The position numbers were made by a program, and so were the translations under genes. DNA of 64,000 nucleotides, from NCBI RefSeq assembly GCF_030684315.1, contig NC_081393.1, positions 14,007,479 to 14,071,478 of the forward strand, read 5' to 3'. Numbering within the stretch: position 1 is the stretch's first letter; each line of letters opens with the position of its first letter. The stretch is from Stegostoma tigrinum. Lineage: Eukaryota. Positions 3,244-44,800 of the stretch are shown in pieces. The notes under the pieces are model-generated. The model was not told the origin of the DNA and searched no databases. It saw only the letters and a list, made by a program, of their open reading frames with translations.

Positions 3244-3351
3244 CACCAGGCCGCTCATGTGCGCCATCAGTATGAAGAAGCATAGCAATGGGCATTCCCA
3301 CATTTTTTGACCGTCCAGCTACAACAACATTCTTCCCAAGAGTTGGGATTC
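3244..3351 (-). CDS. MTHFD2: MTHFD2 exon 5 (108 nt)
   Basis: GIPTLGKNVVVAGRSKNVGMPIAMLLHTDGAHERPG; donor gtgagt. Confidence 0.96.
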
Positions 3352-19950: not shown

Positions 19951-21838
19951 CAATCTGAGGTTAAAACCAGTCCAGGACCATGATACACTGACAGACTTGA
20001 CTGAACTGGACATAAAGATTTTGAATCCCTGGCTACAAAGTACTTCAGAAAACAGCAAGGACAAAAGATGGTAATAATAACGAGAACAGTGACATGTACG
20101 ATGACTTCTCGTCAATATTTTTCCAGGCCAAATTGTTGTTCAGAATGATCTAGCATTAAGTGCACACAACAAGTGATTCAACAGGAAATCTTCAGCAAGT
20201 ACAGAAGTATACCAAGCAGTTCAAGTCATCCATCACACTGCAATTATGAAATAAAGGACCAGGAACGAAGGTCAAAATACTTCAAAGGAGATAGAGTAAT
20301 TTCAGAGTCGAGAACTGGCCCAGATGGTTTGAAATATTAAACAAGAACTAGTTCTCAACTAATGGGAGGCTTCTTCAGTTATGTTAGCACACAATGCAAT
20401 GAAGGCAAAAGCCAGAGCAAAAAAATGATTAAAACCTCTAGGATAATAGTTCCCGTAATAGAAAAGGAATCAATCAAATCAACGATTCACAAGATCAATC
20501 TTTCAAGGCTCAGCCCAAAGTGAGTACATGTCAGGCTTCAAATCTTGACATTTTTACAGTCATTACCACAAGGATCACCAAAATTCCTTCAGTGAATATT
20601 ATCTGGGACATCTCACTGTTGCATGCAAACTATTCATTTGATAGCATTTACCTTCACCAAATCTGTTGTTTGCTATCGTACCTCTGGTGTTTGAATTCTC
20701 AGCAGGTTAATAGCAACACTGAAAGACAAAATGTCTTAACCATAAGCCACTGCCAAGGTACCATGGATACAATGTTTTGGAAAGGGAGAACAAAAAAGGC
20801 AACAAATGAGATAGAAGTTTGAAGAGGATGCAAGTCACAAGAAGGATTCCCAAGATCAATTATTTTTCTGTTACAAAAACAATACTGCAGATGTGTCAGT
20901 TCTGAAGAGGAGTTACTGAACAAGATGTTAACTCTATTTAGTCTGCACAGGTGCTGCCAAACTTGTACAGTTCCTCCACCCATTTACTTTTGTCATAGTT
21001 CTTTTCCATCTCTAGTTAGGAGTACAAACTCTAGCATCGCAGGGCTCATCGGCCACAAGCCAATGACTGATTCATCGTTTCAGAAATTTGATGGTTCTTC
21101 AAAAGGAATGCACCATCAAGCAAGTCAGCCACTGAAGAAAATGGACAGGATTTGTCTCAAAATCTAAGAACAGATTGGAAGACTGAATGACAGTATAGAC
21201 CGTAACACGAAAAAAACGGAAACCATCTCTGCTGTGGTCATGTTCAGAATGCTGACTGTATCACCGGGCAAACTACAAACCAGTGGTGTGAAGTCCATTC
21301 TCTTAATTATCACTTGACAATCTCACCAAGACCTGCTGTATAGAGCAACTTAAGGAGTTCAACACAGTCATTCATCCCACTGCACGTGCACCAATATTAC
21401 ACAAGCAATCTGATGTGACCCATTGCACTAGATCTCACCCAGTTGTGACAATATCTATCAAACTAAAACTAGTAATTCTTCTGTACCATCTAAAAACAGT
21501 GCATTTCAAAATTGTGAAATGTTTCTCCATGTGACCTTGAATTTATTCCCCCTAGTTACTTTATACCTTTTCTCACCTATATTCATTCAGCCCTTCATGA
21601 AAAATATCGTGTATACTAATGGGCTATTTATAGTAACCCTGTGCAATTCACATCTGTAAATAAAATCTACAGCTTCACCCTCTAAATCTCCACTTCTCCA
21701 GGCAAAGTCTATTGCACAAATGTGAAGTTGGCAATCATGTACACAAGTTCAGGGATGAGCTAAAACCCCACATCAGCAATCTTACCCTTTAAAGCCCTGA
21801 ATAAAGTTTGTCCTGTTCACATTTTTCTGAAATTACTC

Positions 21839-21844
21839 TTTATT
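21839..21844 (-). terminator. Candidate polyadenylation signal of the hnRNP H-like gene
   Basis: AATAAA on the - strand with an upstream TGTA element (~21862-21867); a second AATAAA at 21542-21547. Confidence 0.45.
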
Positions 21845-22994
21845 ATATTCACCATTAGAAATGTACAGTAAGTCATCTTTCACATATGTTGAAAAAAGTA
21901 CAGGTTTCAGAAGCTGCACATTCAAGTGTCAAGGTCAATATGTCCCACTGAACAAAACATGGTAACCAAAACACCACCTTTCAGCATGGAATGCAGGTAT
22001 TCCTCTCATTTTTAAAACTACACTGCTAACAGTCAAAAAATTAAGAATCAAGGTTAAAAACGATGTGAACCAGACATACTTTTAAAAAAACTAACTGTCG
22101 AAGAAAACATGTTCGCTTGGATTTCCAATAGCAACACTTAAGAATATACGCTGGAGGAACTGACAGCTCAACATCGTTTTAAACACCATGTATCTGCTTC
22201 TTCATTTTTAATCTGCATTCCACAAGTCATAACAAGAAAATATGCCAACTGAGAACCTCACAGTTAGCTGTTAAAGTTAGCTTGAGGGGGCCATAGAAGT
22301 GAACACAACAACAAAAAGATGCAAAACTTGAACTTGGAACAGTATTTGCAGTTGTGGTCTAATTAGCAAGTAATGGGACAATGGCTTATGAAGACGTAAC
22401 TGTAAGATGTTCTACCAGATGTCCATAACCGCACATTTCTACATGTGACATTCAACCTCAAACTGAACAAAGTGTGGACATTTTGGTGGTGGTCCTCCGG
22501 CTAAGACCACAGAAGGAAGTTAAATCTCTCCCAGTTTCATTTTTAAATGGTACCACCGAAGTTAAAAAAAATTCACAATCACACAACTTGCTCATCTGAG
22601 AAGGTTTTAAAAGATGATCCAATGTTAGATTTAGTTTAGTTAAAATAATAATGTAAGAATTCATCGAAAGAAGGCTTTGAACCAGATGTTTACTTTGATT
22701 TGCCACATTCACTTAAGTCCAAAATTATCAAAGAAGTAGTTAACTCTTCATCAGGTCTCACACCTGAAGCTTCAAACAATGTTACCCAAGCCTGGGCAAA
22801 CATGGGTTTTACACCAAAACATGTAAAAAAATAAAAAGAATTGCAAAGTAGCTCTATTAGTAAAAATATTACTGCTTTTGGTATTGAAGAAAACAAACAG
22901 CAACACTGCTGCATTGGTCATCCATTATGAAATTGTGGCAGAGTTTGGGTTCTTGAAGCTTCTGGCTCATGGCCTGATGAGCATAATTTTAAGT

Positions 22995-23092
22995 TTACAT
23001 TCTCCATCCAGCCATGCTTGTATCTATATTGCCCATTCCCATGTGCTGATTTGGATTGCTCGAATATCCACCTCCTCCCATACCACCATAAC
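22995..23092 (-). CDS. hnRNP H-like last coding exon
   Basis: [35 protein letters not shown] at 22997-22995. Confidence 0.88.
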
Positions 23093-23971
23093 CTGCAATT
23101 AGGAGAAAAAAAAACTGTTTAGAACTACCTCCCACATTTTGTATTAACAAACTTCAAAGCGCCAATATTACATTCAGCAGGTGTATTAGATTTGTGTAAA
23201 ACAAAGAATTAATCCGAGATAAATTGTCACCAATTATTCATTTCACACAAAGTTACCTATTAAGAGGACAAATGTGATAAATTCTCCCAAAGCTTTTAAT
23301 TTCCCAAATAAAGCATCTCATCCACACGTAGGGACCAAAGCTTTTGTAACATACACAGCTGCACTTACCAAATCCACGCGCATTTCCAGGATTTCCATAT
23401 CCACCATAGCTATTGCCCATATTACCGTAGCTATTTCCCATAGCCTGGGTGTTATGACCATAGCCCCCTTGATTGCCTGTGGATCAACAGAAAATGCACA
23501 CTTTCATTTATCGCTCTTCCCCCATAATGAACCAATAACAGACACTCTCTGACTAAAGCACTATCATTTGTCTACATTCAGCAATCAAGCACTCAAATCA
23601 CTAGGCATCAATATTGCCCAGAACTATTTGCATGGAGGCTGCAAGTCAAATCCTCTTTCCTTCAGGGGGCAGATAATGGAGCATAGCTGACAGCATAGTA
23701 CTGGGGGTAAAATGACCCCCCCACACTAACATCATGATTCCAATAAAATGCCACTTTGCTATTTCTGCTGAAACCAAGCAAAAAGAATTCTAGAGAGATT
23801 ATCTTCATAAACCATGGCTATCTGCATCCATTACATAAAAATCAAACAGCAAATGCTTACATCTAGCAGTCAGAAATCACACACAGGTAGTTTCTATCTG
23901 AGGGTGCAATCACAAAACCTTTCTCCAAAACAGAAGGAAATTCAGCACTACTTCAGACAACAACTTTTTTT

Positions 23972-24004
<33 letters not shown>

Positions 24005-27000
24005 GAGGAGAAGAGAGAGAAACAGTTAATCAATCTCATGAAATCATGATATAATTCATCATGACATAATCCATGTAGCACCCATCCCTCCACCACCTGT
24101 TCCTCCCAGATCAGTGTTTAATTCTGTTAGCACGAGCAAAATGGTCACTGGGGAGCTAACATTCCCCTTTTTCCAAGTGTCTCTATCTATAACCTGCCTA
24201 GGATGGTTATGGAGATAATAAGGTGGAGAGCCAGATGAACACAAGCAGCAGAGGAGCAGGAAGGCTGACGTTTCGGGCCTAGACCATCTGGTCAGCACTA
24301 TCCCTCCAGTTTTTGGCCTATGCAGGAAATGATCATGGCTGAACTAACGATGGTGAACCATTTCATGTACAAAACCCGAACTAAAAGCTGTACGCCAACT
24401 CACAGGCACAAGGCACACCGTAAACAAAAAAGACAATATCAAGTGTGGCATCAGCAAAAACAGACAGACAGTCAGAATCTGAGAAAGTTACCTGCTGCAT
24501 AATGGTCCATACTCATGCCCATTGCACCCATTCTGTGATTTCCATAGCCACCAGGCCCACCTCCCATGTTGGCAGTTGAATCCAGGAACAATTCAATATA
24601 TCTGTGTTCTAAGAAGTAAATTAGAAGAAGTTAGCAAGGGCACAATTTCCCACTCAGTGACATCAGCAAACAATTTCAAAATAAGGAAGATGACTAAACC
24701 AGTTAACTCATATCCATAAAATTAAGTCTTTCCACAACACTTATGGGATAGAAGTAAAATACACAGTTTGAGGTCAGTCTCAGTGGTGAATTATAAGAGT
24801 GAATTTAGCTGATAAGCTCATTAGACTAAATGAGTTGCAGTTATAAAGAGCAGTTGAACAGAGGAGACTGGTGAAGGGGGAGGAATATGGTTGAAATGCA
24901 TCAAGCAACAAGGGGCACAGATAGGGTGGACAGCAAGAAACATGACTCCTTGAAGAAAGCATCAAATGTTTGGGGGCATAGATTTAAGCCAAAACGGCAG
25001 GTTTACTGGCAATTTAAAGAAAAATATTTTCGCCCAGAGGGTAGATGGTGAACTCCAGTTTGCCACTAAGGGTGGTAATGAGCAAGTGTGACACCAAGGC
25101 ATAAAAGGCTACAGGCCAAGTGTAGAAAAATGCTGCAAGAACAGTTGTGTGTTTGCTTGCATCTGGCGTAGGTGCAGTGGGCTGAAGGGCCCACAACAGC
25201 TCTATGACCAAGGTGAACATTTCACTGAGAAGGAATACAGCTATGATACAAAACAGTTCATTAACTGTAATCTCAGGCATAGACACCTAGAAAACTTTAA
25301 GGAGACTCAATGGCAATTGTTGAAATCTTTGGTCCTGTATTCCTTTTAAATTTGGTACCTAAAAGTGCGCAGTTGACTTACCATTTTATTTCTGTGGTTC
25401 TTAACTGGAAAAAAATTATGTATTTCTTCAAAATCTCACGTCTCGTTCGTGAGACTGGTGAATGAGTTCAACCAATTTTAATGAGGGAAAAGGTACAATC
25501 TGCGATAGCCAACTAAGGAGGTGAAATGGCACGAGCAATTTCATTGATCAACATTTGACTGTAGTCATGTTATAAATAGTTAAAAATGCGGTAACGAATT
25601 AACCATTTACTTTGATGAACTAAGTTGGGATCAATAGTAACAATCTTAGTTACAATGTTCACATTTCCATTGTGACAGGGATAGTGACAGAGGAAACATT
25701 TTAAAATTAGATGATCATTTTCCTACAAATTAATAAACGTTGCACTGAATGGTCTTAAAGCCATCTGGGGAGGCAGAAACGAAACCACCGTAAATTGAAG
25801 TGAAGCCAAATAACAAACGAAACATGTTACCGGGAGCCCAAAAGAAGTTTCCCTGAAAAGGAACCACCACTTTAAAAAAAGTGCTATAGCTGTTGTAGTT
25901 GCGTGCGTCGTGGTTCTTACCAGACTCCTTTTAGTAAATTTGTCACGGTGAAAGCTTGGACATGCATGTCCTGATGCATCTTAGTATAAAACGGAAGTTT
26001 AATTTCTTGATAGGTAAATGTGAAAATGAAAAAAGTTAAATACCTCTAAGATTAACTATGTTGCTGACATAAGCTTTTAGTGTTTTTTGAGCACAAATGG
26101 ATTTTACCAGGACTGGAGGGTTCGAGTTATCAAAAACAGGCTGGGATTTTTAAAACGCCCCCACCCCGTGCAGCAGTTTGACGTGTGACCTTATACAGGC
26201 TCTGAAAAATCATGAGGCGCCGGGCAAATGTTTTTTCCCCTTGAGTGGGGAAGTTCAAAACTAGCAAGAGGTTTCAGGTGAGAGTGGAAAGATCTAAAGA
26301 GACCCAAGGGATAACTTATTCACACAGAAGGTAGTGCATAACTGGAACGAGCTGCCCGATGAAGTGGTCAAGGCAGGTAACAGTTACAACTTGTAAAAAG
26401 ACGTTTGGACAAGTACCTAAATAGGAACAGTTTTGAGGGATATGGGCCAAATGTAGAAACAGGATTAATTTACTTTAGGAAGCATGGTCGGCATGAGCAG
26501 GTTGGACCAAAGGGTCTGTTTCCGTGCCTTATGATTATGACACTGAACTACTTACGCATGTGGGCTTTATCTTTCGACATAGCTGCAACTGCATCTTCAT
26601 GAGTAGCAAACTCGACATCAGCCTCTCCAGTGAGTCGACCATCAGAGCCATATTCAAAATTTATCTTTACAGGAATCAGCGGTGAAAAGAACTACAAGGA
26701 ATATAATGGTACAGTTGTTAACACAAGAATAAAAGCAGATTCCTTAGTTATTTCCTCAAACTAAAACCAAAACATCCTTTTTTTTTTACAGTAACGAGTG
26801 CTATGGGTCCAAGAGAAAGCAATGATTTTGTGAAGCTTTGTACTATGTAGCATTTACATCAGGAACCAAATGCTAATTTTCATACCTTCCCACAATATGT
26901 TCTATATCCATCACGGGCTCTGGTTTGTCAAATGAAAAGCTATCACAAGAACTGTTATCATCTTCTCTGCTTTTAAACTGCATTTTAAAATATTCAAAGA

Positions 27001-30000
27001 TAGATTGCTCCCACCTCAAATAAACATAATTGAAAGCCATAACCTACACCTCCGACAAAATAAACACATGAATCCAATTTCTGACAAGTCACACTTACAT
27101 CTGCAACATCTCCTTCAGAAGCTCTGAAAGGTAATCCCCTCATGTGTACATAATGACCTGTACCATTCTGAAATAGGGGACCAGCATCGCCTGCTCCACC
27201 GTAACCACGACTGCCCATGCCTAGATGGCAATAATGTTCAGTTACACACCTGTATATGTCTGTATGAACAAGTTTTCCAACATTAATATATCAGTTCAAA
27301 CACTTGGCGTGCAACTAATTTGTAATTAGTCTAATTCAGGAAGTAAGAGACATTCTATTGTGATGTCAACACAGTATATTAAAAACACCAACCAAATATC
27401 AGCCAATTACCTTCCCCTCTCAAGCAAACATATGGACCAGGAACATCCTTGCCCTACCTCTATCCATCATTCCACCACCTCTGGCATTGTGTCCATATCC
27501 ATCACGTCCATAACCGTAGTTATCATTATAACCGTAATCATCAAAGTTGCCATAACCTAGGGAGAACAAACAAACAGGCTGGCTTGAACTAAAAGATGGA
27601 CCAGACCGGAGTTCTAACCCCTCAATTTTTGAAACCTAAGCTTTTAGATCTAAAAGCCAAGTTAGAAGTGCATTACAAATCTAATTCATGCATCTGAAAA
27701 GCATTATACAAAGTCTTTGCATTCAAGTATTCATAAACTTGAAAGAAGTCTATCCATGCTCCTACCTCCACCATAGCCAGCTCCTCTACGTGCGCGATCA
27801 AACATGTCTCCTCTCATGGGCCCTGGACCACCGTAGCCAGTTCTTGCACCTCCCATTGGTCTGTCGTAGGGTCCTGGCCGCTGACCCATTAACCTTCTTG
27901 GTGGATCATGAAAAGCTCGAACTTCACCTCTACTGCTCCTGAAGATTTCAATATACCTAAACAGCCACAAATGATATATTTACGTCTTGCCTTTGACAAT
28001 TCATGTTCATCACTAAACACGCTGACATCATGATTGCAGATTTCTCTGGTAAAAAGACAAAATTCAGTCACTTGCCCTGAACACACATCCCAGAATGGAA
28101 TTAGCAATTTAGAAACTGGCTCTTTTTAAAAAAAAAGTGTCCACATTCATGGGAGATGTTTCCACCATTCATTTTGGAACCAGGCTGAAGTGTCAAACCC
28201 TACAGCTTGGCTCTAAAAAACAAGGAATGTACTTTACACCATAGCTCATTAAGATGCTTTGGCAGTTGCTTTACGAAAATGGCAACTTTAAACACATTCA
28301 CACAACAAACATAATTCATAGGCAAATCAAACTTTTCAAATGCATCCAACAGGTGTATGCCAGCATTATTAAATGAACAAGAATACCCAAGTGGCAGGTT
28401 TATCCATTATAATTGGATGATAACCTGAAACAGCCACTCAGAATTAGAAAATGCTCAGCTTGTAAATCAGTTCATGACATCTCTGAGAATGCATCACCTA
28501 ATTAACTTTTCACCAGAGCAATCTGCCTACTTTATCTTAAAAAAAACACTAGGCACAGTCAATTTGTCAAATATAGCAGCTATTTAATTTTTGCATTAAT
28601 GTGTCATTTACATATAAAATGTCTGACTTGCTGTGGCAAAATTTGAAGCATAGGAACCAGTTACATGAGGTAACTACAGGTTGTTTCATTGTTGGATGTT
28701 CATGAACCGGACGTCAATAAAAAGGAATATTCACCTGCATCTCATTGCAGTGGTGAAATTTTTTAAACTACCCAAGAGCACAGCAAATTGTTTGCCAAAA
28801 CATGTGTTACATAATTTGACCAAGTTGCATCTGTCAAGCGCATGTTCCATCTTTAAGTTCCAGTGATTACTGTGACTGCCTGGTTTCCAATGACTAGGAG
28901 AAACCTGACTGCAAGCAGACAGTTGGCTGCTCAATATGGTTAGAGAAATTATACCATCAGACTATGCATCCAACGAAAGCAATCAATATGATTGCTCAAC
29001 TCAACTCCAGGTTTGATTAAGGAATATATGTTTCCACAAGAGCAGCTATAGACAATGCAATCTCAGTGTCTGTCTCAGAATTCTGGAATCCCCACCAGCC
29101 CCCAAGTGCCATCCAATACCAGAGGCTCAAGGAAGTTGAAGGTTTGGTGGGACACTGAAACGAAAACAAAACACAAATTTGACACAGTCACTGCATCTGA
29201 GCAACCTGTAATCTTTGGTACTGTTCTCTTCATAACTCCCAACGAGATTAATTTTCAAGCTATGTGCAAACGAGACATCAAGTCAGACATTTTAAATACA
29301 AAGTTTAGTGCAAGATATCAGAGATATAACACAAGCATTTGGGACTAATTTCACCAATTAGCTATTAATACCGACGCTTCTGAACGCGAATCTGAATACT
29401 GATTTCAGTGCAATGCTTTTCGACTGGAAAATAGAATAGTTAAAATATCAGCAAACCTAGTAGTCTTCACCTTCCCATTAGGTGAGATGAAGACAAACAC
29501 ATGGAATGCTGTGTGCTTCAAGCACAAAATGATAAATTAGTGAAGTGGGGTAGGGGGAGAAAATGTCCCACAATTGTGACATTACTTTGTAAATGTTACA
29601 GTTTAATTTGAAACTGCACTTTGGATGTGTAATTTAATTAATCCAAATGTTTGAACACATTACTTCAAAATTGAATCAAATTGAAGCAATTCAAATTGCA
29701 AACATTTACATCCATGATCATCCTAACTGCAAGGCCCTCTCTAGAGAATCAATCTTCACAAACTTGGGACTGAAGGGCAAATGCTGCCCTGGTTTGTCAT
29801 TTATTGCCAAACAATTTTGAAGTCACATATAGAGGGCCCAGCAGCATAGGACATCATTTTGACAATTTTGAAAAAAAAATCAGTTGAGTCCCCACTCAAG
29901 TTTTCCAATGGTGTGTGGGAGGTTCGACTATTGTCTCTGCAAGAACAGATGAATTCTGCAACCTGAACAAGTGGGCTTAAAGACATATGAGCCACCCTTC

Positions 30001-33000
30001 CGTCCATCCCCACCTGTGCCCTATTCTTTCCTTGTGTTTCCCCAGTGCTTTTTCAGCTATCTCCTTTGATGCAAACTGCACGAAGGCTTCCCCCGTGCTT
30101 CTCCCCTGGTAGTCCACCGGCAATGTTATCCCATTTGGCACGATTTCCAACCCTTCAACCCAAGGACAAATACCCCACAAGGGGAACAATATTAAAAATT
30201 GAAACATTCCTACTTATGCACATACTACAGCATATCAATATTGAGTACTGATATCAGAATTGACTAATGAGACAAACAGCTGCAGAATGCTCTTTAAATA
30301 AAGCAAAGATCCAACAAAAAAAAACAAAAACAAAGGCCAGCTAAGCTTGCACATTTTTAAAAAAACCAATGCTTGTACAAATAGGGGCAGGACAACATTG
30401 TTGCTTTAGCCAATGTTAGCAACATGCATTAAATTCTAAGAAATAACTAATCATGACCATAATCAGCAAGTTACTGTGGTCATTCAAATTGGTTCACTTT
30501 TACACCTATAATGGAAACCAACATGACCGTCAAACATTAAAACTTCAGTGGTACAACTAATTTTAAGGCATGATTAACTTGTCCTTGTTTTTTAGGCAAC
30601 TCGAATTAGTGAACAAAGTACAACTACACAGGTAATTACATTTCAGCTCACTTGTGTCACCAGGATTAAGAGTGTCTGGACACAAAATCCCAGTTTACAA
30701 TTCCAATTGAGAAGTTAAGAGTCTCTCACTGTTTGTTAATGAAGAAAAACAAATTGCAATTTTATCTACTTCACACCAAAACTCAGGACTATTTGCAAGC
30801 AGATGAATAAAATCCCACCTCACTCTCAGTGTACAGTCTACACAAACTGAAGGTGGCTTAACAGAACCTCTTCAGTGTCATTTGCTGGCTGGTAACTGCC
30901 CATCATATCATCTGACAATTATTCTGATTAACAGCCTACAATACTTTTGGTTTTAATAAAATCAAGAAAGCAATTAATACAACAATTTTAAATTCATAAA
31001 TAAGCATGCAATTAAGTAACTACATTGACTGCAGCAACTTCAACTACTTTTCTCTACATAATCCTTGTTCTTAGTGACGGAATCCAGTAGTTGCAAAAAA
31101 CAGTTTAAACTGTACAAATAGCAAAGAGCACGAAGCTCCAGTATCTCACAAACAAATCAGGATCCTTTTTGCTTTAGGTAATTAGCAATGTGCAGCCTGT
31201 GCATTCACCAAGCAAACTCTGCATCAATACACCAATTTAGCATGGTCTTAAAATATAAGAGTCCATTTACATAACACGCTGCAAGTTACTGACTGTGAAG
31301 AAACGTTAAGGGTACCAAACCAGTTGCTGTCCCAAACAGCTAGGTGACTACATCATACCAAACTGAACTTGACTCCAATGAAGCCTGACTTTTCTACTGC
31401 TTTTAGTCAAGACAAGAGACATTTACTGCAACTTAAATTCAAGTTAAGTTGTCTACCTAACTCCTGATACAGGAAACCTATGGTAGATCTACAATGCATC
31501 AGCAGGCTGAATCCAAACAGTCGCTGGATGTCACAACCTGGGGGAAACATAGTTTTTTTTAAACTGCTACTCCAGATTCATATTTCATCCCAGCCAGTAT
31601 CCTTACTTGCTCCCTCTGACCAATCAGATAGGGTTAAATGAGACAAGGACTGCATTTGCTCAGAGGTCCACACTGTGGTCAAAAATTTTGCCAACGCTCA
31701 CCATGAAGCTTCATGCACGAGAATTAGCCTTGTAAACGCATACATGAAATTAACTTCATTCGGAGGTGCAATCTTTTACAAAAAAAAGACAAAGCATCAT
31801 AAGGGACTTTTTTTTGAAGGTTAGATAAGGTTAATTGGATGAATAACGAGGGATTTTGTTCCGATTCCTGTAAACTTCTGGTCCAGTTATCAATTCTTCA
31901 CAGCCAGTAACCGCAGTGAATTGTAGTGCTGAGACATCAGTAGCACAACTTAAAATCTTAACATTTTGTATACAAGTAGAAACTGTTAAGGAAACAAAAC
32001 AACCCAATTGAAAAGGGGAGAGACACCAATTTTAGGGTTTCATCCCTTTTATGGGTAATCCCACTTTATAAGCATGAGAAGCCGAGGGCAGGCAGGCAGG
32101 CAACATAGCCATACAGACAATGGCTGGAGCCGCAATAATCCAGGTCACAATTCCTCTGTATCTAAGAGGTGACCGGCCTCTGGTGAATACATCCCAACAC
32201 TGGAAAACGTGGGTTTGGAAACTCCATTGGAATGGCAAGCACATGCCTGCATCCACCACTCCATGGTGCAACACAACAAATGCCAAATTACAGCATGACT
32301 GTATCGTCTGAACCCAAAAATTTAACTCTACTATACACAAAAATGCTTAAGGAATAGTTTTGAATACCAGCACCACTGCTCAAGCCAAAATCATTATAAT
32401 AGTATTATATACACTTATGAAATATTACTAGTGCTAAGCTTGAGCTGACAAACTGAAAAATTCTAAACCAATTGAGGTCTCACAATTGAATGGGTTAATT
32501 ACTGCAGTTAACATTTCCCAATTAGTAACTGCACATGAAGTTACCGGAACACGATTCTAAACTATTCCTTCAAAGAAGTTGTCAAGGATGATGAATTTTG
32601 ATATTACAGGCTCACAAGATTGGACTCAAGGATTATCTTCTTTAGAACAAAAAGCCATTCTCATCATTAAAATGGAAAAACCAAAAGGGTCTAATTTTAA
32701 GTGACAGCCCAATGTACCTTTTGGAAAAAAAAAGTAAATATTTGCTAGCTTTGTCAGCAAAAGCAACCAACACCCCAAAGGTTCATCTTTAAACACTAGA
32801 ACAGTTTGGTAACTTGGTGCAACAAGGTTTGCTGGGACCATGGAGCTAACTAGTGATCCTTGACCAAAACTGCAATCAAAACCCCCACCAACACACTATT
32901 TTCTTTAGTGATGTTGAAAACAGTGGCATTTCTTAATTACCAAAATTGTCTTTATTCTAAGTCACGATGCTAAGCTTTAAAACAAACATTTTAACCACTG

Positions 33001-36000
33001 TTTTTGTTAAAACACTTTTTGGAACAAAAAACCCTTGTGCCCAATACTATGTGCCATTCTACTAAGTCACATTTATAATTTGGTTATTCCACCCCCTTCA
33101 TCTACAGAAAATAGAAATAAAACAGCTGTGTACACGAACACTGAACACAAACAGCCACTGGAGAGGCTACCCAATATGTTCCCAAATCTATTGTTAAATA
33201 AAGTAAAATCGACATTACACTTATTGCCCCTACCCACATCAGACCCACAAGCCCAAATACTTGGTTCCAGTATTGGAGAAAGTGACAAATTAAGATGTAC
33301 CTGTGAAAAACTGCAAAATTTCCTCTTTACTGCAGCCAAAGGGCAAGCCCCTGAGGCGCACTGTTCCATCGCTCGTGGACTCAGTTTGGTTTGGGTTAGC
33401 ATGTTTTAGCGCCCAGTCCATTTCAGAGGCTTTAGTTTCAAACACTGTAAACACAAGTTACAAATACTAACAAAAACGAACATGTTGCAGGTTTGTCTGT
33501 CAAATACTGAAAGAGGACAACATGGATGAAGTCACTCCCCATGCCATGCACTGCAATATTATTTTCAGAAAACCACAGCTGACAAAAGAAAATTAAAATT
33601 GCACCTGTCTGCATTTTTCAATATTGTCCCAGCTACTCAAATTTTCTGCATTAATATTACTAAAAAGAAAGATGTTCGTTGTTTAGCAGACCACTGCTCT
33701 TTTTGAGAGCTTAGGCACAAAGTTTTCCCTGTTCACCCTTAGTGTTTAATAGAAGCAAAAAGACAGGAAATCTGAAATGAACACAATGGGATGGATTAAT
33801 TCATGAAGTCTGGCAGCAGCTGAGAGATCACTTTACTGGGTCCTGGAGCTACACCGATAACATCAGTCTCGGTCTCCAGAGATGCAGTCAGAACTGGGTT
33901 CCTCCAGCACATTGACTATTGCCTTAACAGTCTCTTGCTTACTGACATACTCTGCAAAGCCCACACGTTAGGACACAGTCATGAGGACTGAAAACCATAC
34001 CCCACCACAAACTTCAGCTGATTCAATTAACTTTCCAACACAAGGACCAACAGCAAAACACGACAAAGCAAGAGCATTCACACGCAAAATTTCAGCTCTC
34101 ACCAGTCATTACGTCTTGGACCAGAATAAGATGTGAGTCTCTGCAGCGAAAAGCTTGCTAACTATCTGAGGTATGCAAGTAGAGGTCTATAGCATTGAGG
34201 AGTTTTCAGTCTTGGAAGCTACGTAGAATTCAGTACAAAGATGACAGTTTGAATCATAAATCTGGAACTGATGCCAATCAGGAGGGCGGAAGAGAGGAAT
34301 GCATGAAGAAACATCCTCAACAAGTTATTGTACTCCCCCAGAAGTGAAATGCTTAGGGTTCCTTACATAAAAAAAGCTTTTCTTTCAGTTCTTCCTCCTC
34401 TAACTGTGCAGTCCACCGCCACCAACACCCCCCCACAACTACCACAAGATACAAAAACCTGCTACATAAAACCAACAAATACCTGTCACACCGAGTGATG
34501 GTTTGAAATGTCACGCACCTTCAATGTATCGATGGCCCATGCTTTCTCGGTCTTTCGCAAGGGCACGTTTTACATCCTCATCACTTTCCAGCTGAACAAA
34601 GGCTTCACCACTCGGGCGGCCTTCTCTTAAATAGGTGAAGTGTATTCCAGCAGTTCCATTTAATATCTTGCAATCTAAAAGCAGCACACATGACAAACTG
34701 ATTTTTTTCCTTGTACTAAACAGTAACGTGTGGTGGGGTGGGAGGCTTGGGAAGCAGGACAAGATTTAAAAATAGCAAAGGCATTGGTGAATAGAAATGT
34801 TAAAATGGTACAAGGCACCATCTTAAATGCACGTCAAAACTTAAAATGTCAGTTTCCAGCAAACCAAATCATTAACTTCAGCATCTCCAACTGCATACTT
34901 CACGCTACAAAGCACAGCAAAATCTTCCAAAACAAATACAGCACATGTTCATTGCCTTCTGTTGGGAGATCAGGAGTCTAACAAAAGTTATTTGAGTTTT
35001 CAACTTTTCAAACACTGTTTCAATTACCACTGACAAGCAGCAGGGCAGGCTCTAGTTCCGTTTTGAATTTGGGTATTTAATTCAATGACACCCAAGACAT
35101 CAGAGCCAGTTCAAATTTCACTTGGTTTGCATACACAACAACACCGATTTGATAAAGTGTCAACTGATTGTCATCTTTGTTAACGACAGTCAAGGAAAGA
35201 CTGCATGAGCATTAACCAATGACATTAATCAAACGGAACAAAGTGGAAAAAGTAAAACCCTTGTCCCCAAACCACTAAAAAAAATGATAAATTGTTCTAT
35301 GACACCACCATTATAGATTTTAGATCAGTCACTGGGACCGATCACTCAAGCTATGAAAATGACAAGTCATTAGCCTCCATTTTAAAAAAAAAATGGACTG
35401 TCAAAATATAACAGAGGATCAGATTCACAGAATAGGGCAGAGCTCCCTTGCTTCAGGAAACAAAAGCTAACAGACAGCCACTGATAATAAAATGTGAGGC
35501 TGGATGAACACAGCAGGCCAAGCAGCATCTCAGGAGCACAAAAGCTGACGTTTCGGGCCTAGACCCTTCATCAGAGCCACTGATAAACTGAATATGAAAT
35601 TCAGAAAAACATCTTAACCAAACAGAGGCTATATATATATTTTTTAAAATTAGTTAAATAGCACCTTCCATGGTAGTTCCCACCCCAAGAGCTTTCCCTA
35701 GGCATGGCTGCAACTTTTGACAAATTCAAGTTTAACATGAACCTCAGTTTTAATGATACTCCCAGCAAAATAAAAGAACATGTTAAAAAAAAAATCAGCA
35801 ATTAAAGTGTGAACAAACAGTGCCACAACAGTTCTTCTCAGGTACATAACAATACAGTGCCTAGAGACAAAAAAAACTGCTTAACACACTTCAGCATGCT
35901 TCAAAAAAACAATTACATGAAGTTTATAAAAGAAAGCAAGTTTATCCATTAACTCCTGACTCTCAGATTCAGGAGGTACCTGAGACTCGTGACATTCTGT

Positions 36001-36187
36001 ACTATTTCTGAAATTGATTCCCTAAATGTGAGACTTGAATCTTTTAATTCACAACTTCAAAATTCTACTCTTCCTTAAAGCCTTATCATTCAGATGAATT
36101 CACAAAACCTGAAAAGAAGCGTAACACTTCATCAGCAGTGCAAGACCACGGAAGTCCACGGACACGGACAACAAAATCTTCATCCAT
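22995..36187 (-). CDS. hnRNP H/F-family protein (HNRNPH3-like C-terminal two-thirds plus an HNRNPH1/F-type N-terminal qRRM1); 11 coding exons, 462 aa
   Basis: join(36109-36187,34519-34674,33301-33444,30014-30152,27766-27956,27458-27556,27099-27220,26556-26691,24492-24608,23369-23476,22995-23092) = 1389 nt, open frame; three qRRMs ([10 protein letters not shown] / [10 protein letters not shown] / [10 protein letters not shown], each ending HRYIE), [13 protein letters not shown], Gly/Tyr-rich tail ending AGWRM*. Confidence 0.93.
23369..23476 (-). CDS. hnRNP H-like coding exon 10 (108 nt)
   Basis: [36 protein letters not shown]; donor gtaagt. Confidence 0.88.
23974..24003 (+). repeat. G30 homopolymer
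   Basis: 30 consecutive G preceded by T9, in an intron of the hnRNP H-like gene. Confidence 0.9.
24211..24285 (-). mobile_element. Penelope-like fragment, hammerhead core truncated
   Basis: gctgacgtttcgggcctagacc present but the CTGATGA half is missing. Confidence 0.7.
24492..24608 (-). CDS. hnRNP H-like coding exon 9 (117 nt)
   Basis: [39 protein letters not shown]; donor gtaact. Confidence 0.88.
26095..26530 (+). mobile_element. Decayed CR1 3' fragment
   Basis: ttcacacagaaggtagtgcataactggaacgagctgcc...gttggaccaaagggtctgtttccgtgc. Confidence 0.75.
26556..26691 (-). CDS. hnRNP H-like coding exon 8 (136 nt, qRRM3)
   Basis: [45 protein letters not shown]; donor gtaagt. Confidence 0.94.
27099..27220 (-). 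CDS. hnRNP H-like coding exon 7 (122 nt)
   Basis: [41 protein letters not shown]; donor gtaagt. Confidence 0.92.
27458..27556 (-). CDS. hnRNP H-like coding exon 6 (99 nt, GYR-rich)
   Basis: [33 protein letters not shown]; donor gtaggg. Confidence 0.85.
27766..27956 (-). CDS. hnRNP H-like coding exon 5 (191 nt, PY-NLS)
   Basis: [36 protein letters not shown]...GYGG; donor gtagga. Confidence 0.92.
30014..30152 (-). CDS. hnRNP H-like coding exon 4 (139-nt cassette, qRRM2)
   Basis: [47 protein letters not shown]; acceptor ttgggttgaag, donor gtggggatgg. Confidence 0.95.
33301..33444 (-). CDS. hnRNP H-like coding exon 3 (144 nt)
   Basis: [48 protein letters not shown]; donor gtacat. Confidence 0.93.
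34519..34674 (-). CDS. hnRNP H-like coding exon 2 (156 nt, qRRM1)
   Basis: [52 protein letters not shown]; donor gtgcgt. Confidence 0.93.
35488..35574 (-). mobile_element. Penelope-like mini-insertion with hammerhead-like core and a 12-bp TSD
   Basis: Direct repeat AGCCACTGATAA at 35476-35487 and 35575-35586. Confidence 0.85.
36109..36187 (-). CDS. hnRNP H-like coding exon 1 (ATG, start of qRRM1)
   Basis: [26 protein letters not shown]; exon starts at 36223; donor CAG|gttttg. Confidence 0.9.
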
Positions 36188-36664
36188 CGTAACTGTCTAT
36201 AACAGATCTCTCCGCACGAAAGCCTGAAAAACATGACAAAAAAAAACAATTACAAAGAGACTAGAGTGCAATACAACAGGATTTTATCTTTTCAACTCAT
36301 GAACATTCAGCTGTAACATCTGCTCATACAGACCACACCACAAATTTTAAATATGCACACTTAAAAATTTTCAGAGAAAGCATTTACACAAGACATGGAA
36401 AAAAGTTACCCTCTCAACACTTGATCCTACCACCTAATCAACAAGGAAAACTTTCTAGCAACCACAAACGTAACACACTACAACCAACTTACCTTGTAAC
36501 AGCAGAAATTCACAATATGCAATAGCCTAGTGGTATTACTGGCAAACTTTTAATCCAGAAACTCATGTTCTTCTAAGCCAAATCAAATTCCTCCAGGGCA
36601 AATTGTGGATTGTGAATTCAATGAAGAATCTGAAATTGAAGGTCCCCCCCCCAACCACTGGAAA

Positions 36665-37040
36665 GTAGGAGATCAAGTGATGACTTTACAGACCATATAT
36701 AAAATCATGAGGGGTATAAGTAAAGTGAATGGCAAATGTTTCTTCCATAGGGTGGGAGATTTCAAAACTGGGGCATACTTTTACAGTGAAGGGAGAAAGA
36801 TTTAAAAACGACACAAGTCTTTTGGTTTACAAACGCACAAGTGTGGGTCCTGTATGGAATAGACCTTCAGAGGAAGTGGGGGATGCAGATACATTTACAA
36901 CGTCCTAAAAACATTTGGGTAAGTACATGAATAAGAAATCCTTGGCCAGACATGCCTCGAGCATAGGAGGGGTAGTTTTATTTGGGACTATCGTCAGAAT
37001 GGCCTGGTTGGTCCAAAGGGTCTGTTCTCATGCTGTACGA
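36665..37040 (+). mobile_element. Decayed CR1 3' fragment
   Basis: tataaaatcatgaggggtatag-like...gttggtccaaagggtctgttctcatgctgtac. Confidence 0.7.
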
Positions 37041-38144
37041 TGGCCGTGAAATCATGTTTATCCGATGATCGACATATCTGGTCCACTTTTAGGAAAGGAC
37101 AACTGTCACTGGCGTCTAGCATTCAAGTTATTCCAGACCCACAGCAACAGCCCTCTGTTCAGTGATAGCTCCGGATGGGCAGTAAATGTCGACCTAACCA
37201 GAGAAGCCCACATTATTAGGGGGAAAAAAAACAAAATATCTACAGCCAAATTCACTCAGTAAACAACTGGTCTTCCAAAACGTGACATGATCCAACTTCT
37301 GCGTGACCTGATTGGGAATTCTGACGTGAAATTTGTTGGGAAGTCTCAAATCATTTGCGTTTGCCCCAAACCATTAACTTGACCAATCCTGACAACAGAG
37401 TACGAAGAGACTGCGTGTAACCCGCGCAAGGCAAGGGCAAGGGAAAGGGTAATACCCCATCGCCCACTCCGAGGAAGAACAAGGAACGAAAACATGCTGA
37501 ACAAACAACACATCTGGAGCCATCTCCCGATGGACAAACTAGAGTTAACAGCGAGTCCAAAAGCACCTCTGAAAGCAGACTGGTGGCAAGCCCGGGAGGC
37601 AAACACCAGCTAAGGAAACCATCGCGGAGACAAACACAACGAGCTGGCTGAGGCACCCCGGTTCACTCAACCGGGCTACCATCAAAACTCGAATCTGAAT
37701 ACCAATGAAACTTAAGTTATTTTTCCCTTCAACCACGGACAAAGATAGAAAGAGAGATAAAATGCCCGCCATTCCCATCTTCAAAAGTAAATAAAAGTCG
37801 AACGAAAATAACTCGAGAACCAAACAGCGCCAAAAACCGCCACCTGCGTCCATTACAAAACAAACGGACCCCGTCAACGAACGCGATTAAAATGGCGACC
37901 GCGCTTCACAACGGCCTCGTGTTCCAATATCACCACCACACCCGTCCCGTTCTCCCCCAACCCCGCCTTTCTTCTACACTCTTGAAGTCTCAACTCCCAT
38001 GATAAAGTATGATAGGGCGTACGCAATAATTTCAAGAACGAAACGCCTGAAGACTAGTCGGATACGTGACGGTTGGTAGACAATGAAGTGACGGTCAGAA
38101 GTGAAGCGATCCTTTTCTCTCTGTCTCTCACTCTCTCCTTTTAC

Positions 38145-38215
38145 CTGCGACTCGCCTCAACAGCACGACAGCGCCTACTAACGTCATCCGCCGGAAACAA
38201 ACGGAATTGTGCCGT
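38145..38215 (-). other. Non-coding first exon of the hnRNP H-like gene (5' end approximate)
   Basis: Strong donor GCAG|gtaaaa at 38145/38144 in a CpG island; overlapping ETS (CCGGAA) and CRE-like (TGACGT) motifs; matching acceptor ttttcag at 36224. Confidence 0.6.
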
Positions 38216-38882: not shown

Positions 38883-38896
38883 ATGAGCTTCCTTTT
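38883..38896 (+). CDS. MOB1A: MOB1A exon 1 coding part (14 nt)
   Basis: ATG AGC TTC CTT TT|gtgagt. Confidence 0.9.
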
Positions 38897-41800
38897 GTGA
38901 GTATTGCGCGGGTGACGTGCCATAATCTGGCCCAGCTCGACCATTCTTCCTGTTTTCGGTTCTACCTTTATGGAAACTTTGGGCCTAGTAGGCCTCGGGT
39001 TTCCTTCCTCTTCTCTATCGTTATTCCCTTACTCCGCCTTTTCACCTGTGTCGTTATTAAGCCGATTACTGTTTCTTCTCCGTCTCACGCCGTTGTCCAC
39101 TCACGTAGTCTGATTAACTTCTGATATTGGGTTGGAGGTTTCCTGTTGGAACGTACTACGCCTTTCTTAAAAAAAAGGTGAGGATATAATTATTTGAGCC
39201 GACTGCCCAACAATGGGAACCTTTGATATACGTGTTACATTGTCAGCTCATATTGTCTGCAATCGGTGGTGTTGGACATGGACTATGCAAATAACTTCCT
39301 ACGACACTCATTTTTGTCAAAACACAGGTATGTGTTTTTGAAGACGTGGAGCCACTGAAGGCTGGGTTTTGCTTTTGTTTCATCATTGTGTAACTTAGTC
39401 AAGTGCTTTCAACTTGCCTTTGCTGAAAGTATTATGTTTTCTGATGGACATTACTTGCCAACTGAGACCATCTTGACCTCTTTGTTTTGCCATCATCAAG
39501 GCAAGTAATTTTTTGGGCATTATAATTGTGTACATCCATGGTGTGCTTATTATTAAGTATTATGATTTCAGTCTTCAGTGATTTTTGTTTTCATCTGAAC
39601 CAATTCGTGTGGCTTCATCTTTTTCAGATGACCCGTTGTGAAGTCATTATTCTTGATTATCTCAACATGAGTTGTGCAGAAATAAGTGTCAAGCTGGAGG
39701 AACACAGCAGGCTAGGCAGCATCAGAGAAGTAGGAAAGTTGACGTTTCAACTCAGGACCCTTCTTCTTCTGAAGAAGAAGGGTCCTGACCCGAAACATCA
39801 ACTTTCCTACTCCTCTGCTGCCTGGCCTGCTGTGTTATCTCTGACTCCAGCATCAGCAGTTCTTACTATCTCAGAATGAGTTGCACAGAGTTTTGTTATT
39901 TGTTTTTTTTCCTTCTTTATTTCATGGGGAATGATTGTCAAAATCATACTTGATTCCCAGCTTAATTGCCCTTCAAATGAAGGGTCTTTGAGGCCAGTAG
40001 TTGAGAAATGTGTGACTGTAAATCTCAAGTCTCTTGTAGGCCAGAGCAGGTGAGGATCGCAGATTGACTTAACCACTAATTGTGAAACAGATGGGCTTTG
40101 ATGATATTTGAAGGCTGTTTCATTCGCAAAGATTATAAAGGCCAGACCACTTGTCTGGGCCTCTGGGCTACTAGCACCTGGTACAGCCAGGCATAAGAAA
40201 CTTCTGTGGCCTCATTTTTTTGTTTGTTTTTTGAAAGCAGCCTCACACCTGAGATAGAGAGAAGACCAGGTAGGGTAAAACTGAAGCCTGCATCTTGTCC
40301 AAAACTCAACCGTCATGTTTGCTGTTAAATCTTCAAGCCATAGAGTAACCTTGCACTCAAGATGATGAACCTGGTTATCTGTCGCTCTAAGGATGAGCAT
40401 GATAGTTTGACATAAAAGTCAGTTGCAGAGAATTCTGTGAATTTCAAGGACAATGTAGCTTGTTATTTTTCTTTATTTATTTCTGTCGACAGCAGCGGAT
40501 TCTTCTGTGGTATTATCCTCCCTCTTCTGTTTACCTAAAAGCAGAAGCTCCAATGCGGTGACATGCTTTGCAGTTCACTCAGTTCCTATGCATGACTGAT
40601 ATCTATACCATTGAAATTCTACCAACTGTCAGTTTACTATTCACTTAATCATAAACTTGCGGACAGCTCTTAACAGACTTGAGATTGTATGGCTTGGTAC
40701 GACCTTGTATCATATGATGTACACCAGTGAATTTGTACTTATGTCATTATAGTCCTACTGGATCATAGGGCTGCTGCTGCAGTTTTTAGAGAGATGACTG
40801 GTGACGGTTTAATCTGAGTGTCACCATGGCTTAAACAGAGGGAGAATTTGAGAAGCAGAGTCCTTCATGATAACCTCACCTGGTGAGGAAATGGAACCAA
40901 TGAGAACAAGTAAGGAATTTTGACTCCTTATGACACAGTATTCAAGTACATAATGTTACAATTAAGTGATTCTTGTTGACAAGCAAGAACTTCTGAATCC
41001 AATGTATAGTTCTTCTAACCCCAGGAATCGAGGCCAAATGTCATTTTCCAATAGCTGGTTAAAGCATTAATTATTGGTTAGTTAAGCAAAGATTTTACTG
41101 CATTTTCGTTGGTGAATTGTTTCCTGGTGGAGAATTGCTGAGTACCATATTCAAGTTTGTGTCGCTTCTTGATGGTGTTCCACTAAATTATGAAATTGTG
41201 TATCTTGCTACGCATGGGCAGGTCGTTGCTTCTTTGCAGCTGAAGTGTGAAAATAATACTCATTACTTGCAACCTTTGTTGGACTATTGAAATATGTGGC
41301 ACTGATATAATTGTAAGTTAGTAGCTGTTCTACAATTTGGGGTATGCAACATCCAGTTAGTGGAACATCACTGTCCATTTTAGTAGATGTAATTATAATC
41401 ACTTGAGCTGCATGCATGTAGAGGTGACCGTGAACTGCTGCAGTCCATCTACTGCAGGCAGACCCACAATGCCCTGGGGGGGGTGTGGTGCGGAGGGGAG
41501 GAGTTTCTAGGATTTTGATCCTATAACCCTGAAGGAGCAGCAGCATATTTTCAAGACAGGATGGTGAATAGCTGGGAAGGGAACTTGAAGATCATTTTCG
41601 TCTCTCATATCTGCTGCCCTTGTCCTAGATGATAGAAGACATGGATTTGGAAGCTGCTGAGAAGGACCTGAGAATTTCTGCAGTGTACACCCTGCTGTTG
41701 AATGTTGTTGGTGTAGAGAATTACTGACACCGCATCCACAAACAAACTAGCTGCTTTGCCCTGAATGGTGTCAAGCATCTTGAATGTTGTTTGAACTGCA

Positions 41801-44800
41801 CTCATCCAGACAAGTGCAAAATATTCCACCGTACTTCTGACGTGTAGATAAATGAAAGGTTTATACTTGTCAGGTTTGTGAACATGTGTACGCTGCTGAT
41901 AAAATCGTTGGAGCCTTTAAATAGAGTTTAAAGCTTGCCTGCGGTCAACTGATCTCTTCTGGGAAAAGCGAGAATTCCATTTTCTCATTGACAACCATCC
42001 TCCACGCCTAAAGAAACCTTTATTTGATTTAAAGAATCAGTGATGATGAATGGTTTACTTGCATTTCAGTGGGGTTCGAAATAACAGAACTTTCAAACCA
42101 AAGAAGAATATTCCGGAAGGTTCCCATCAATACGAGCTGCTAAAGCATGCTGAAGCAACTTTGGGAAGTGGTAACCTTCGTCAAGCTGTTATGTTACCAG
42201 AAGGCGAGGATCTAAACGAATGGATTGCTGTCAATAGTAAGTGTATGCAACTTGAATTTTACCCGTCTGTCTGCCCATTGCAAATATTTTCCAATGTAAA
42301 TCTCAAGATATTATTGCACACCTGTGGTCCAGGTGGGAGTTGAATCCTAATCTCATGACTGAGAGGTAAGGTCACTGTAGTTGCACCATGAGATCTTCTG
42401 GCCTACCTTTTCATTCATGTCTTTTCCCCTTTAAGCTGCCTGGGCCCTAAACTCTGGAATGCACTCGATAAAGCTTTCTCAGGCTTTCATTAAAACCTAT
42501 CACTTTGAAATTTTCCTTACAGCTTTATTTTCCTTAAGCAGCTGGGTGTCAACTTCTCTTGTGAAATATTTTGCCATCATTGGATTATGTTAGCTACTTG
42601 TAAACAGACAGCATCTTTGTTTTCTACCTTATTGTTTCCTATATATGGCTTAAACATTGCAATCAAGATATATTTGTGCAAATATGTGACTCTTTTTCGA
42701 AAAGGCTGTAAGAAAAAAATGTGGTGAAAGTGCAGTTAAACATCATGAATACAGTTACAAAACTGAGACTTCCAAAACCTCTTGCTTGTTATTTCTTTTT
42801 GAGTGTTTCTGAAATTCAGATAATGCTTTACTATTTTTTTTAATGGCAGTCACCCTTTTTTTTTCCTGTTCTGAGCAATCCTTTTGAGGTCTGTATTCTG
42901 TATTTATTTTCCATTCCCCAGTTTCCATTTTTAAAGAAGTATTTGTTTCTTTGTTCTGGAAGAGTAAATTTGTTTCTGTGAGGTAGGGGACAAAATCTTC
43001 AGTGCCCAGATTGTTGGAGATCAAAGATATGGCTGCAGATGTGTGTCAAGCCCCTGCAGAAGTACTCGTGTGGATGCATGTGGGAATTTCATGGGAAGTT
43101 TTATCTCGTGATGACACATTCTAATGTTTCCTGGGTCCCTCTGTGAAAATCTCTTAATCTGAGCTAAAGTGGAAGACTTGAGAAGTTTGATGTTAGTTAA
43201 TTGTGTAGTTTCTCAAGTGTCAGATCATTTTGAATCTTGTCTAATTGCTGAAGTAGCCAACTTCAGAAGTAACCCAACTTGGCTTCCCCCACCCTTTCTT
43301 CTTCTCCTCCTCTCCAACAGCCCTCGCCACCTTCGTCAACCATCACCAGCAGTCACACAAATTGCTGGTATTTATGACTTGACTACCTGATTTTAATTGG
43401 TAACTGCAATTGGTAATTGTTCTCTTAATAGATATTTATTGTGACTGGCTCATTTATTTTCAGCTGTCGACTTCTTCAACCAAATCAACATGCTGTATGG
43501 AACAATAACAGAGTTTTGTACAGAACAAAGCTGTCCTGTGATGTCAGCAGGACCAAGGTAGGAAAGATCCTATACACTCAGAACAAGTGAAGACTTAAGA
43601 GAAATGGTCAGATAAAAGAAGGTTGACAGTGACAACATGCTAGAAGTATCTGTTAGATGCCAAAATGCTTCCAGCTGCCTTGATGAAATGCTTTGTGAGC
43701 CCAAACCTGTCTTTCAATTAAGTGACTTAAAAATGAATGTTGTGTCACCATGAAGACTTTAAAAGGTTTTCAGTTCTGAAACACACAGTTGACATTTATT
43801 GGCCTATTCATGCTTCACCTTCACTTTCAGTCAGGTACAGAACAAACTTCAATCTTAATAGCTTTACTAGAGATCAGGAACATGCTTTTTATTTGACAGT
43901 TCCTTCCTTCCTTCCCTTCTCTTTGTCTAGTTTCCTTCAAAGAACTTCGCTGCGATGTTTTGATCTTGTGATGAGATTGGATAGTCGCTATCCATTGCTC
44001 AACTTAAGTTACAGTAAAACACGATCCCACTAATCTTGGCGCTAACCACACTCGCCATCTAGGTTCAAAATGTAGGAATTTTTCCTTGTTCACCAGCCTG
44101 CATTGATTGGATTTGCAGACGTCAGTCCTCCTGTTTTCTATCTGTGCCTATTTAGTCAGAACAGCATAAAACACAGGAATCTGCACTTCCAAGCCCCTGT
44201 GAAATAACTTTTTTTGAGGTAGTTTCGGTGAACTGATGTAAACTCTTGTCTTAATTTATACAGTGATTCCTTTTGAACAAATTGCACTGTCTCTTGTGGA
44301 TGCAAAAAGACCATTCCTTCATGATCTCATTTAAGATTTTGTCATTCGTGTGGCATCAAAGGTCATTTGCAGAACAATGTTCTGAACTTGCACCACATGT
44401 ATGCAAACGTTTTGCTAATTTTAGTCCTTCAAGTCTGGCTTTAATTTCGAGATTATGCCGTGCCCATGCACTTTTCTTCCTAATGAGTGGTTATGATTTG
44501 TCTGCACATTTGTTCTCCCTCCTAATTATCAACTTTGATCAAATCATTGTGTTAGCTTTCTAAACTCGAGGGAAGATAATCAGTTTTTTAATTTCTCTTT
44601 GTAATTTCACCCTTGGCGTTCGGGCATAAATCTTGGAAACCTGTGCCGTCATCTCCAACTCCAGAACATCTTTCGCAGAATATGGTGTCCAGAACTGATT
44701 ACAGAGCTTGATCTTCTGTCTTCATCACCCATGATATTTTGCCCATGAGTGAAAGACCTACAATACTTGTATTTCGTGGGTGTAATCACTTCAACATTTT

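Follow-up and report, generated by a model that had tools for sequence, protein, structure and literature searches.

The analysed stretch of DNA, called the window here, comprises 64,000 nucleotides of the shark Stegostoma tigrinum (assembly GCF_030684315.1, contig NC_081393.1, positions 14,007,479 to 14,071,478 of the forward strand). Between MTHFD2 and MOB1A it contains an hnRNP H-family gene, termed H4 in the following. With a probability of roughly 0.85, we consider H4 the fourth ohnologue, apparently not described before, in the family of GRSF1, HNRNPH1 and HNRNPH3, belonging to quadrant C (Quad C) of its paralogon. Cartilaginous fishes have retained the gene, whereas the stem lineage of bony vertebrates likely lost it. 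The trees show an old, separate and slowly evolving H4 lineage, while synteny supplies the slot.

The exon model, assembled by script from the window letters, consists of 11 coding exons on the minus strand, from the ATG at 36187 to the TAA at 22995. It has AG acceptors and GT donors throughout and gives an unbroken open reading frame (ORF) of 1389 nt and 462 aa. The modelled protein is letter-for-letter identical to RefSeq XP_048378976.1 (P0127), 'hnRNP H3-like isoform X2 [Stegostoma tigrinum]'. An earlier note, made from the letters of the window, had described a complete 462-aa multi-exon hnRNP H/F gene in this interval, head-to-head with MOB1A, and had expected an 'H3-like' pipeline label; exon model and RefSeq entry bear out both. 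H4 is already in RefSeq as an automated model; the literature searched does not treat it as a paralogue of its own. No published description of a fourth paralogue was found there, a scope without most subscription papers and bioRxiv supplements and with the supplement of PMC8040251 in part.

Genomic context

A search of the same genome with the exon encoding the second quasi-RNA recognition motif (qRRM2) found four places among 20 scored candidates: the window locus on contig C52, C24 (96%), C15 (89%) and C1 (59%). The qRRM1 exon returned the same four loci (19 candidates scored) and a weak match of 41% identity at C19:20559683-20559835, which probably belongs to an ESRP or RBM12-type gene. 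Compared exon by exon, the C24 gene matches whale-shark H3, the C15 gene shark 'H1, like' and the C1 gene shark GRSF1. The separate RUFY-linked H1, H3 and GRSF1 loci proposed in the earlier note are hence present. Only the C24 gene is both RUFY2-adjacent and in the H3 clade, as an HNRNPH3 orthologue should be, and only the C15 gene is both RUFY1-adjacent and in the H1 clade, as an HNRNPH1 orthologue should be; H4 is neither. Since separate H3 and H1 genes exist on C24 and C15, the window gene is neither an H1 nor an H3 that has changed place. The four blocks are arranged as follows (positions in Mb):

C1: RUFY(+) 3.40, GRSF1(-) 3.45-3.48, MOB1(+) 3.48-3.49, dNK(+) 3.54, SLC4(+) 3.68-3.78
C15, inverted view: RUFY(+), H1(-), dNK(+), SLC4(+)
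C24: RUFY(+) 56.56, H3(-) 56.63-56.64
C52: SLC4(+) 13.96-13.98, MTHFD2(-), H4(-), MOB1(+), TET(-) 14.10-14.11, dNK(-) 14.48 (0.4 Mb further on)

Only two close matches to a MOB1 exon were found among 11 candidates, on C52 and C1, each head-to-head with an H-family gene. From ATG to ATG, the H4-MOB1A pair spans 2.7 kb and the GRSF1-MOB1B pair 3.0 kb, and the qRRM intron positions of GRSF1 coincide with those of H4. Among 37 scored candidates, no RUN-domain match fell on C52.

In the available part of the curated ohnologue table (paralogon 14, Table S1; Lamb 2021, PMC8040251), the four quadrants are occupied by GRSF1 / HNRNPH1 / empty / HNRNPH3 and by RUFY3 / RUFY1 / empty / RUFY2. The table covers gar, reedfish, Xenopus, zebra finch, chicken, opossum and human. 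Its empty Quad C holds SLC4A5, DGUOK and TET3, and the first genome-duplication round (1R) is given as the split (A,B) versus (C,D). H4 lies on C52 among SLC4, TET and dNK family genes, matching the Quad-C neighbourhood, and is paired with MOB1 as on C1. The earlier idea of a fourth, empty paralogon slot is thus upheld, mainly by synteny. Its companion claim that MTHFD2L lies near GRSF1 was not confirmed, the search matching the window gene only. BOLA3, PBLD, MTHFD2L, TET1 and the FYVE motifs of the RUFY genes were not found in searches that are weak on short exons and provide no evidence of absence. An ancestral block with the order RUFY(+), H(-), MOB1(+), dNK(+), SLC4(+) would account for the arrangements, with the C52 copy having lost RUFY and kept the H-MOB1 pair.

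The dNK gene beside H1 (C15:38270253-38272266) matches the Quad-B ohnologue 'DCKL', which has no opossum or human entries in the available part of PMC8040251.

Phylogenetic analysis

Across 280 core columns, H4 is 80% identical to H3 and 80% to H1, compared to 79% between H1 and H3 and 92% between shark and chimaera H4. The lamprey protein is 72-74% identical to each of H1, H3 and H4. IQ-TREE analysis under LG+C20 (60 rows x 280 columns) yielded separate clades for H4 (100/99), H1 (100/99), H3 of sharks and bony vertebrates (98/83) and GRSF1 (100/100). No examined bony-vertebrate sequence falls inside the chondrichthyan H4 clade of this tree, in line with the earlier suggestion of a separate paralogue kept in cartilaginous fish. 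In a second tree, shark and bony H3 again grouped together (97/92). H4 lies outside both shark+bony clades in the best trees, so that the protein is, as had been proposed, not nested within H1 or H3.

Approximately unbiased (AU) tests under LG+F+G4 compared seven trees of 26 vertebrate rows x 344 columns. Grouping of H4 with shark H3 (p-AU 0.030) or bony H3 (0.034) was rejected, as was grouping with shark H1 and with bony H1 (p-AU 0.002). With GRSF1 included (29 rows, 7 trees), none was rejected, and the topology ((GRSF1,H1),(H4,H3)) was 0.6 log-likelihood units from the best tree (p-AU 0.63). In a quick mixture-model tree, GRSF1 fell within the vertebrates at weak support.

The FastTree set left out rows in which less than 70% of the core columns were occupied, and P0021 (UniRef V9KND6, Callorhinchus 'H2') was excluded from the trees. 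V9KND6 looks like a mosaic of an H1 N-terminal half and an H3 C-terminal half, a pattern that mis-assembly through the near-identical exon 4 could explain.

Species distribution

Among the matches listed and in cluster look-ups, H4 orthologues were found in at least 21 cartilaginous species, including sharks, rays, skates and the chimaera Callorhinchus, under the automated labels H3-like, H-like and H2-like. Exon 5 as query gave 34 matches among 106 candidates; for the whale-shark protein, the 120 best of 1411 matches (7999 scored) were covered. Of the 123 proteins listed, 78 were nearest to H1, 36 to H3 and nine, all chondrichthyan, to H4. The best 150 of 5145 representatives of 50% clusters (E up to 0.001) contained two that were more than 70% identical to H4, both of them closer to H3/H1. 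Ten residues are fixed in H4, and none of them occurs in any of the 31 H1/H2/H3/lamprey rows among the 60. Among the matches listed, these residues co-occur only in chondrichthyan H4 records, the best other sequence having four of the ten. At the level of listed annotated proteins, the gene looks to be missing not just in mammals, as the earlier note had it, but in all bony vertebrates examined. Proteins labelled 'hnrnph1l / H1, like' were considered as bony orthologues of H4 and rejected, as those from gar, bichir and sharks group within the H1 clade. A protein atlas returned family-level chordate clusters only.

Gene structure

The features of H4, all on the minus strand, are:

38145..38215, probable non-coding first exon; GT donor after 38145; 38215 is not a mapped 5' end
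36109..36223, coding exon 1 (coding 36187-36109), start of qRRM1; exon model
34519..34674, coding exon 2, qRRM1; exon model
33301..33444, coding exon 3, end of qRRM1, linker and start of qRRM2; exon model
30153..30196, conserved stretch of intron at the 3' splice site, containing a GGGG run and common to the H1 and H3 paralogues
30014..30152, coding exon 4, qRRM2; 139-nt frameshifting cassette equivalent to HNRNPH1 exon 4
27766..27956, coding exon 5, end of qRRM2, QRPGPY and start of the GYR region; exon model and contigs
27458..27556, coding exon 6, GYR low-complexity region; exon model and contigs
27099..27220, coding exon 7, start of qRRM3; exon model and contigs
26556..26691, coding exon 8, qRRM3; exon model and contigs
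24492..24608, coding exon 9, end of qRRM3 and GY region; exon model and contigs
23369..23476, coding exon 10, GY region; exon model and contigs
22995..23092, coding exon 11 to the stop codon; exon model and contigs
21822..22994, 3' untranslated region (UTR); AATAAA at 21839-21844, X1 and X4 contigs ending at 21822

The stretch 38145..38215 probably belongs to H4, as RefSeq models of related sharks have N-termini starting there; its donor at 38144 lies about 0.7 kb from the MOB1 start at 38883. The 3' UTR reaches beyond the extent given in the earlier note, to about 21822. Runs X1, X4, X6 and X11 come from other, related organisms and their RNA status is guessed; their contigs, aligned to 21000-29000 only (exons 5-11), are spliced at the predicted boundaries for 6/6 introns in X1, 6/6 in X6, 3/6 in X4 and 0/6 in X11. 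Contigs of X1 and X4 also span 27929-29000, the 3' part of the intron after exon 4, possibly reflecting intron retention or pre-mRNA, which contig depth cannot rank. In RefSeq isoform X1 (P0128), the exon 7 acceptor lies 39 nt further upstream (27221-27259, minus strand), so that the GYR region gains 13 residues.

The non-coding exon has an upstream ATG, with which a 28-codon upstream ORF (38145-38187 + 36223-36179, minus strand) begins that overlaps the main start out of frame. This ATG is in frame in the models of some related sharks, so its frame is not conserved; the upstream ORF could possibly serve translational control. A GRSF1-like N-terminal targeting extension of H4 was considered and rejected, with the upstream ATG being out of frame and extensions varying or absent across orthologue models.

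Exon 4 and putative self-regulation

Taken together with roughly 45 nt of the intron upstream and the GTGGGGATGGA donor, exon 4 shares 91.5% identity with H3 over 224 nt and 87.7% with H1 over 220 nt. The remaining coding-exon matches of H4 to its paralogues range from 67 to 88%. In the same comparison, no further non-repeat intronic stretch common to H4 and its paralogues was evident, and GRSF1 gave no match to the cassette or its flanks. Counting G-runs in and within 60 nt of each exon, exon 4 tops all 11 with nine, the runner-up having five. Computed skipping of exon 4 places the stop at codon 149, with 705 nt left to the final exon junction.

According to the available text of bioRxiv 10.1101/686956, skipping of exon 4 in human HNRNPH1 leads to nonsense-mediated decay, the protein binds poly-G motifs there, and mutations of these motifs reduce skipping. 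By its anatomy (139 nt, frameshifting, G-run-flanked), H4 appears to keep a self-regulatory cassette of the HNRNPH1 type. By analogy, the feedback would be the same in both: H4 would limit its own level by promoting exon 4 skipping, followed by a premature stop and nonsense-mediated decay, and might extend this control to its paralogues. Under the pairing in the accessible part of PMC8040251, flanks common to H1 in Quad B and H3/H4 in Quads D/C would put the age of the switch before 1R. The three divergent copies that one genome carries show which bases of the intron are important. The self-regulatory switch at HNRNPH1 exon 4 is mutated in mantle cell lymphoma.

Origin of H4

Several results weigh against H4 as the fourth ohnologue, some of them by way of the alternatives discussed below. 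The 60-row tree leaves the relations among the H4, H1, H3 and GRSF1 clades open, the three arrangements of H1, H3 and H4 were all retained under LG+F+G4 (p 0.41-0.60), and sisterhood of H4 and H3 was not the best tree in three analyses. Because paralogue branching and GRSF1 placement are left open by the trees, the 'fourth slot' rests mainly on synteny, for which the RUFY, SLC4, TET and dNK neighbours were named by family and position only. No bony-vertebrate H4 was found among the listed annotated proteins (best 120 of 1411); no bony genome was searched, and a fast-evolving, partial or unannotated bony copy would escape at this scope.

An origin of H4 by duplication of HNRNPH3 on the chondrichthyan stem, with insertion next to MOB1A, appears improbable. 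Under the mixture model, grouping of H4 with shark H3 was not rejected (p 0.218 for 29 rows x 280 columns, 0.068 for 26 x 344), H4 is known from chondrichthyans only among the matches listed, and its exon 4 region is nearer to H3 (91.5%) than to H1 (87.7%). However, the same grouping was rejected under LG+F+G4 (p 0.030), shark H3 joins bony H3 in both trees (98/83; 97/92), and H4 shows no greater similarity to shark H3 than to H1. Such a duplicate would also need to have landed intact, head-to-head with MOB1A, in the sole empty slot and in the orientation of GRSF1-MOB1B. Slightly less credible still is a derivation of GRSF1 from an older tandem duplicate, which would make H4 the third surviving H copy of the genome duplications and not the fourth of a quartet. 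GRSF1 occupies the same slot between RUFY and MOB1 and shares its qRRM intron positions with H4, and all 17 species-labelled GRSF1 matches of a low-sensitivity search (16 named, 1 unnamed) belong to jawed vertebrates. The quick mixture-model tree also places it, weakly, inside vertebrates, the careful tree leaving this open. Against these observations stands its core identity of only 55-57% to H1/H3/H4, below that of some invertebrate proteins and compared to 72-74% for the lamprey protein, as well as the lack of a match to the exon 4 cassette. A position of GRSF1 outside lamprey+H was moreover not rejected (p 0.07-0.17) and is favoured by FastTree (281 rows). That H4 is a relocated shark HNRNPH3 or HNRNPH1 orthologue, as the labels 'H3-like', 'H-like' and 'H2-like' suggest, can practically be dismissed. 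It is refuted by the RUFY-linked H3 (C24) and H1 (C15) genes of the same genome, and grouping with bony H3 (p-AU 0.034) or bony H1 (p-AU 0.002) was rejected as well.

As the fourth ohnologue, H4 fills the slot left empty by the curated table, and the name of a gene that goes by H3-like, H-like or H2-like in at least 21 cartilaginous species can be corrected. Four intron-containing members of the family were likely present in the ancestor of jawed vertebrates. Mammals regained H copies by retroposition (H2, F), long after the likely loss of H4 on the bony stem. A fuller scenario, to which we give somewhat better than even odds, has three cross-regulating nuclear H ohnologues in cartilaginous fishes, with one G-run exon 4 switch older than 1R, and H4, lost once on the bony stem, completing the quartet. 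The surprise is moderate, because cryptic shark ohnologues are a known pattern.

Protein features and comparison with related proteins

Three RRM_1 stretches were detected in the H4 protein (Pfam). Its best solved-structure matches are the qRRMs of hnRNP H/H2/F, with a gapless match to human hnRNP H qRRM1-2 (6dhs_A, E 9e-96). Each qRRM carries an RGLP motif (RGLPW, RGLPF, RGLPF), and the sequence contains both the GYR region between qRRM2 and qRRM3 and the C-terminal GY region. The available part of PMC12155273 describes this architecture with GYR and GY regions for hnRNP F/H, with the nuclear localisation signal (NLS) of H1 where QRPGPY sits in H4. This motif (residues 198-203) lies next to the GYR region and aligns with the HNRNPH2 chain 8sgh_B. 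We take it to be a proline-tyrosine NLS (PY-NLS), a role that its sequence makes likely.

From what is known of the family, H4 is predicted to be a nuclear, G-tract-binding splicing regulator like H1 and H3. The protein would be imported into the nucleus through the RPGPY signal, bind G-tracts with its three qRRMs and regulate splicing, with the GYR/GY regions mediating interactions. It is because of this family knowledge that H4 is read as H1/H3-like and not as mitochondrial like GRSF1. GRSF1 is a mitochondrial protein whose N-terminal extension serves mitochondrial targeting.

HNRNPH3 (hnRNP 2H9), the second-round (2R) sister of H4 predicted by the paralogon table, shares with it three qRRMs in sharks, the GYR/GY regions, QRPGPY, 80% core identity and a 139-nt exon 4 with near-identical flanks. 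It differs by its RUFY-linked C24 locus and own clade, whereas H4 is MOB1A-linked and restricted to chondrichthyans among the matches listed. HNRNPH1/HNRNPH2 resemble H4 in domain order, intron positions, RGLP motifs, exon 4 cassette and 80% core identity; HNRNPH1 has a separate locus and clade, and mammalian H1 shows a zf-RNPHF Pfam match that H4 lacks. Mammalian H2 and F are retrocopies. GRSF1 shares three qRRMs, the qRRM intron positions and a head-to-head MOB1 gene at about 3 kb ATG-to-ATG. It is distinguished by 57% identity, a long N-terminal extension and the lack of Gly-rich regions, RPGPY motif and exon 4 flank conservation. In the accessible part of PMC2944030, Pdx2 is likewise an ohnologue kept in cartilaginous fish and lost in most other vertebrates; by analogy with its relatives, H4 differs in being a putative, broadly conserved splicing regulator, and it shows no bony-vertebrate retention among the matches listed.

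Other features of the window

The neighbouring genes of H4 are:

38883..55692, plus strand, MOB1A, 6 coding exons, 216 aa; A/B name inferred from position
602..10233, minus strand, MTHFD2-type exons; the gene extends beyond the left edge of the window, and its first exon probably lies near 15.7 kb

The latter exons are presumed to be MTHFD2 from translation and position. A GC-rich promoter-like stretch with a possible donor lies at 62000-62240, downstream of MOB1A, where BOLA3 would be expected from the human gene order; BOLA3 exons were not found by a search weak on short exons.

X-linkage of C52, which has the length of a shark X, was considered and rejected, since shark X markers (Nramp) matched on C64 and C9, not on C52. 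In the available parts of the sources, published shark X chromosomes match human 12/chicken 34 (PMC10620051), and the shark X carries an nramp2-like gene (10.1101/2025.02.26.637739). C64, with two Nramp-family genes and an SLC4 gene, is likely the X chromosome by published X-linked markers.

A perfect 17-bp minisatellite of 16 copies (100% match) is located at 17382-17653, between MTHFD2 and H4. The last MOB1A intron contains a fragment of about 1.1 kb (51260-52360), judged by eye to be similar to a long interspersed element (reverse-transcriptase-type). Short repeats resembling short interspersed elements occur at 9720-9865, 24212-24285 and 35483-35576.

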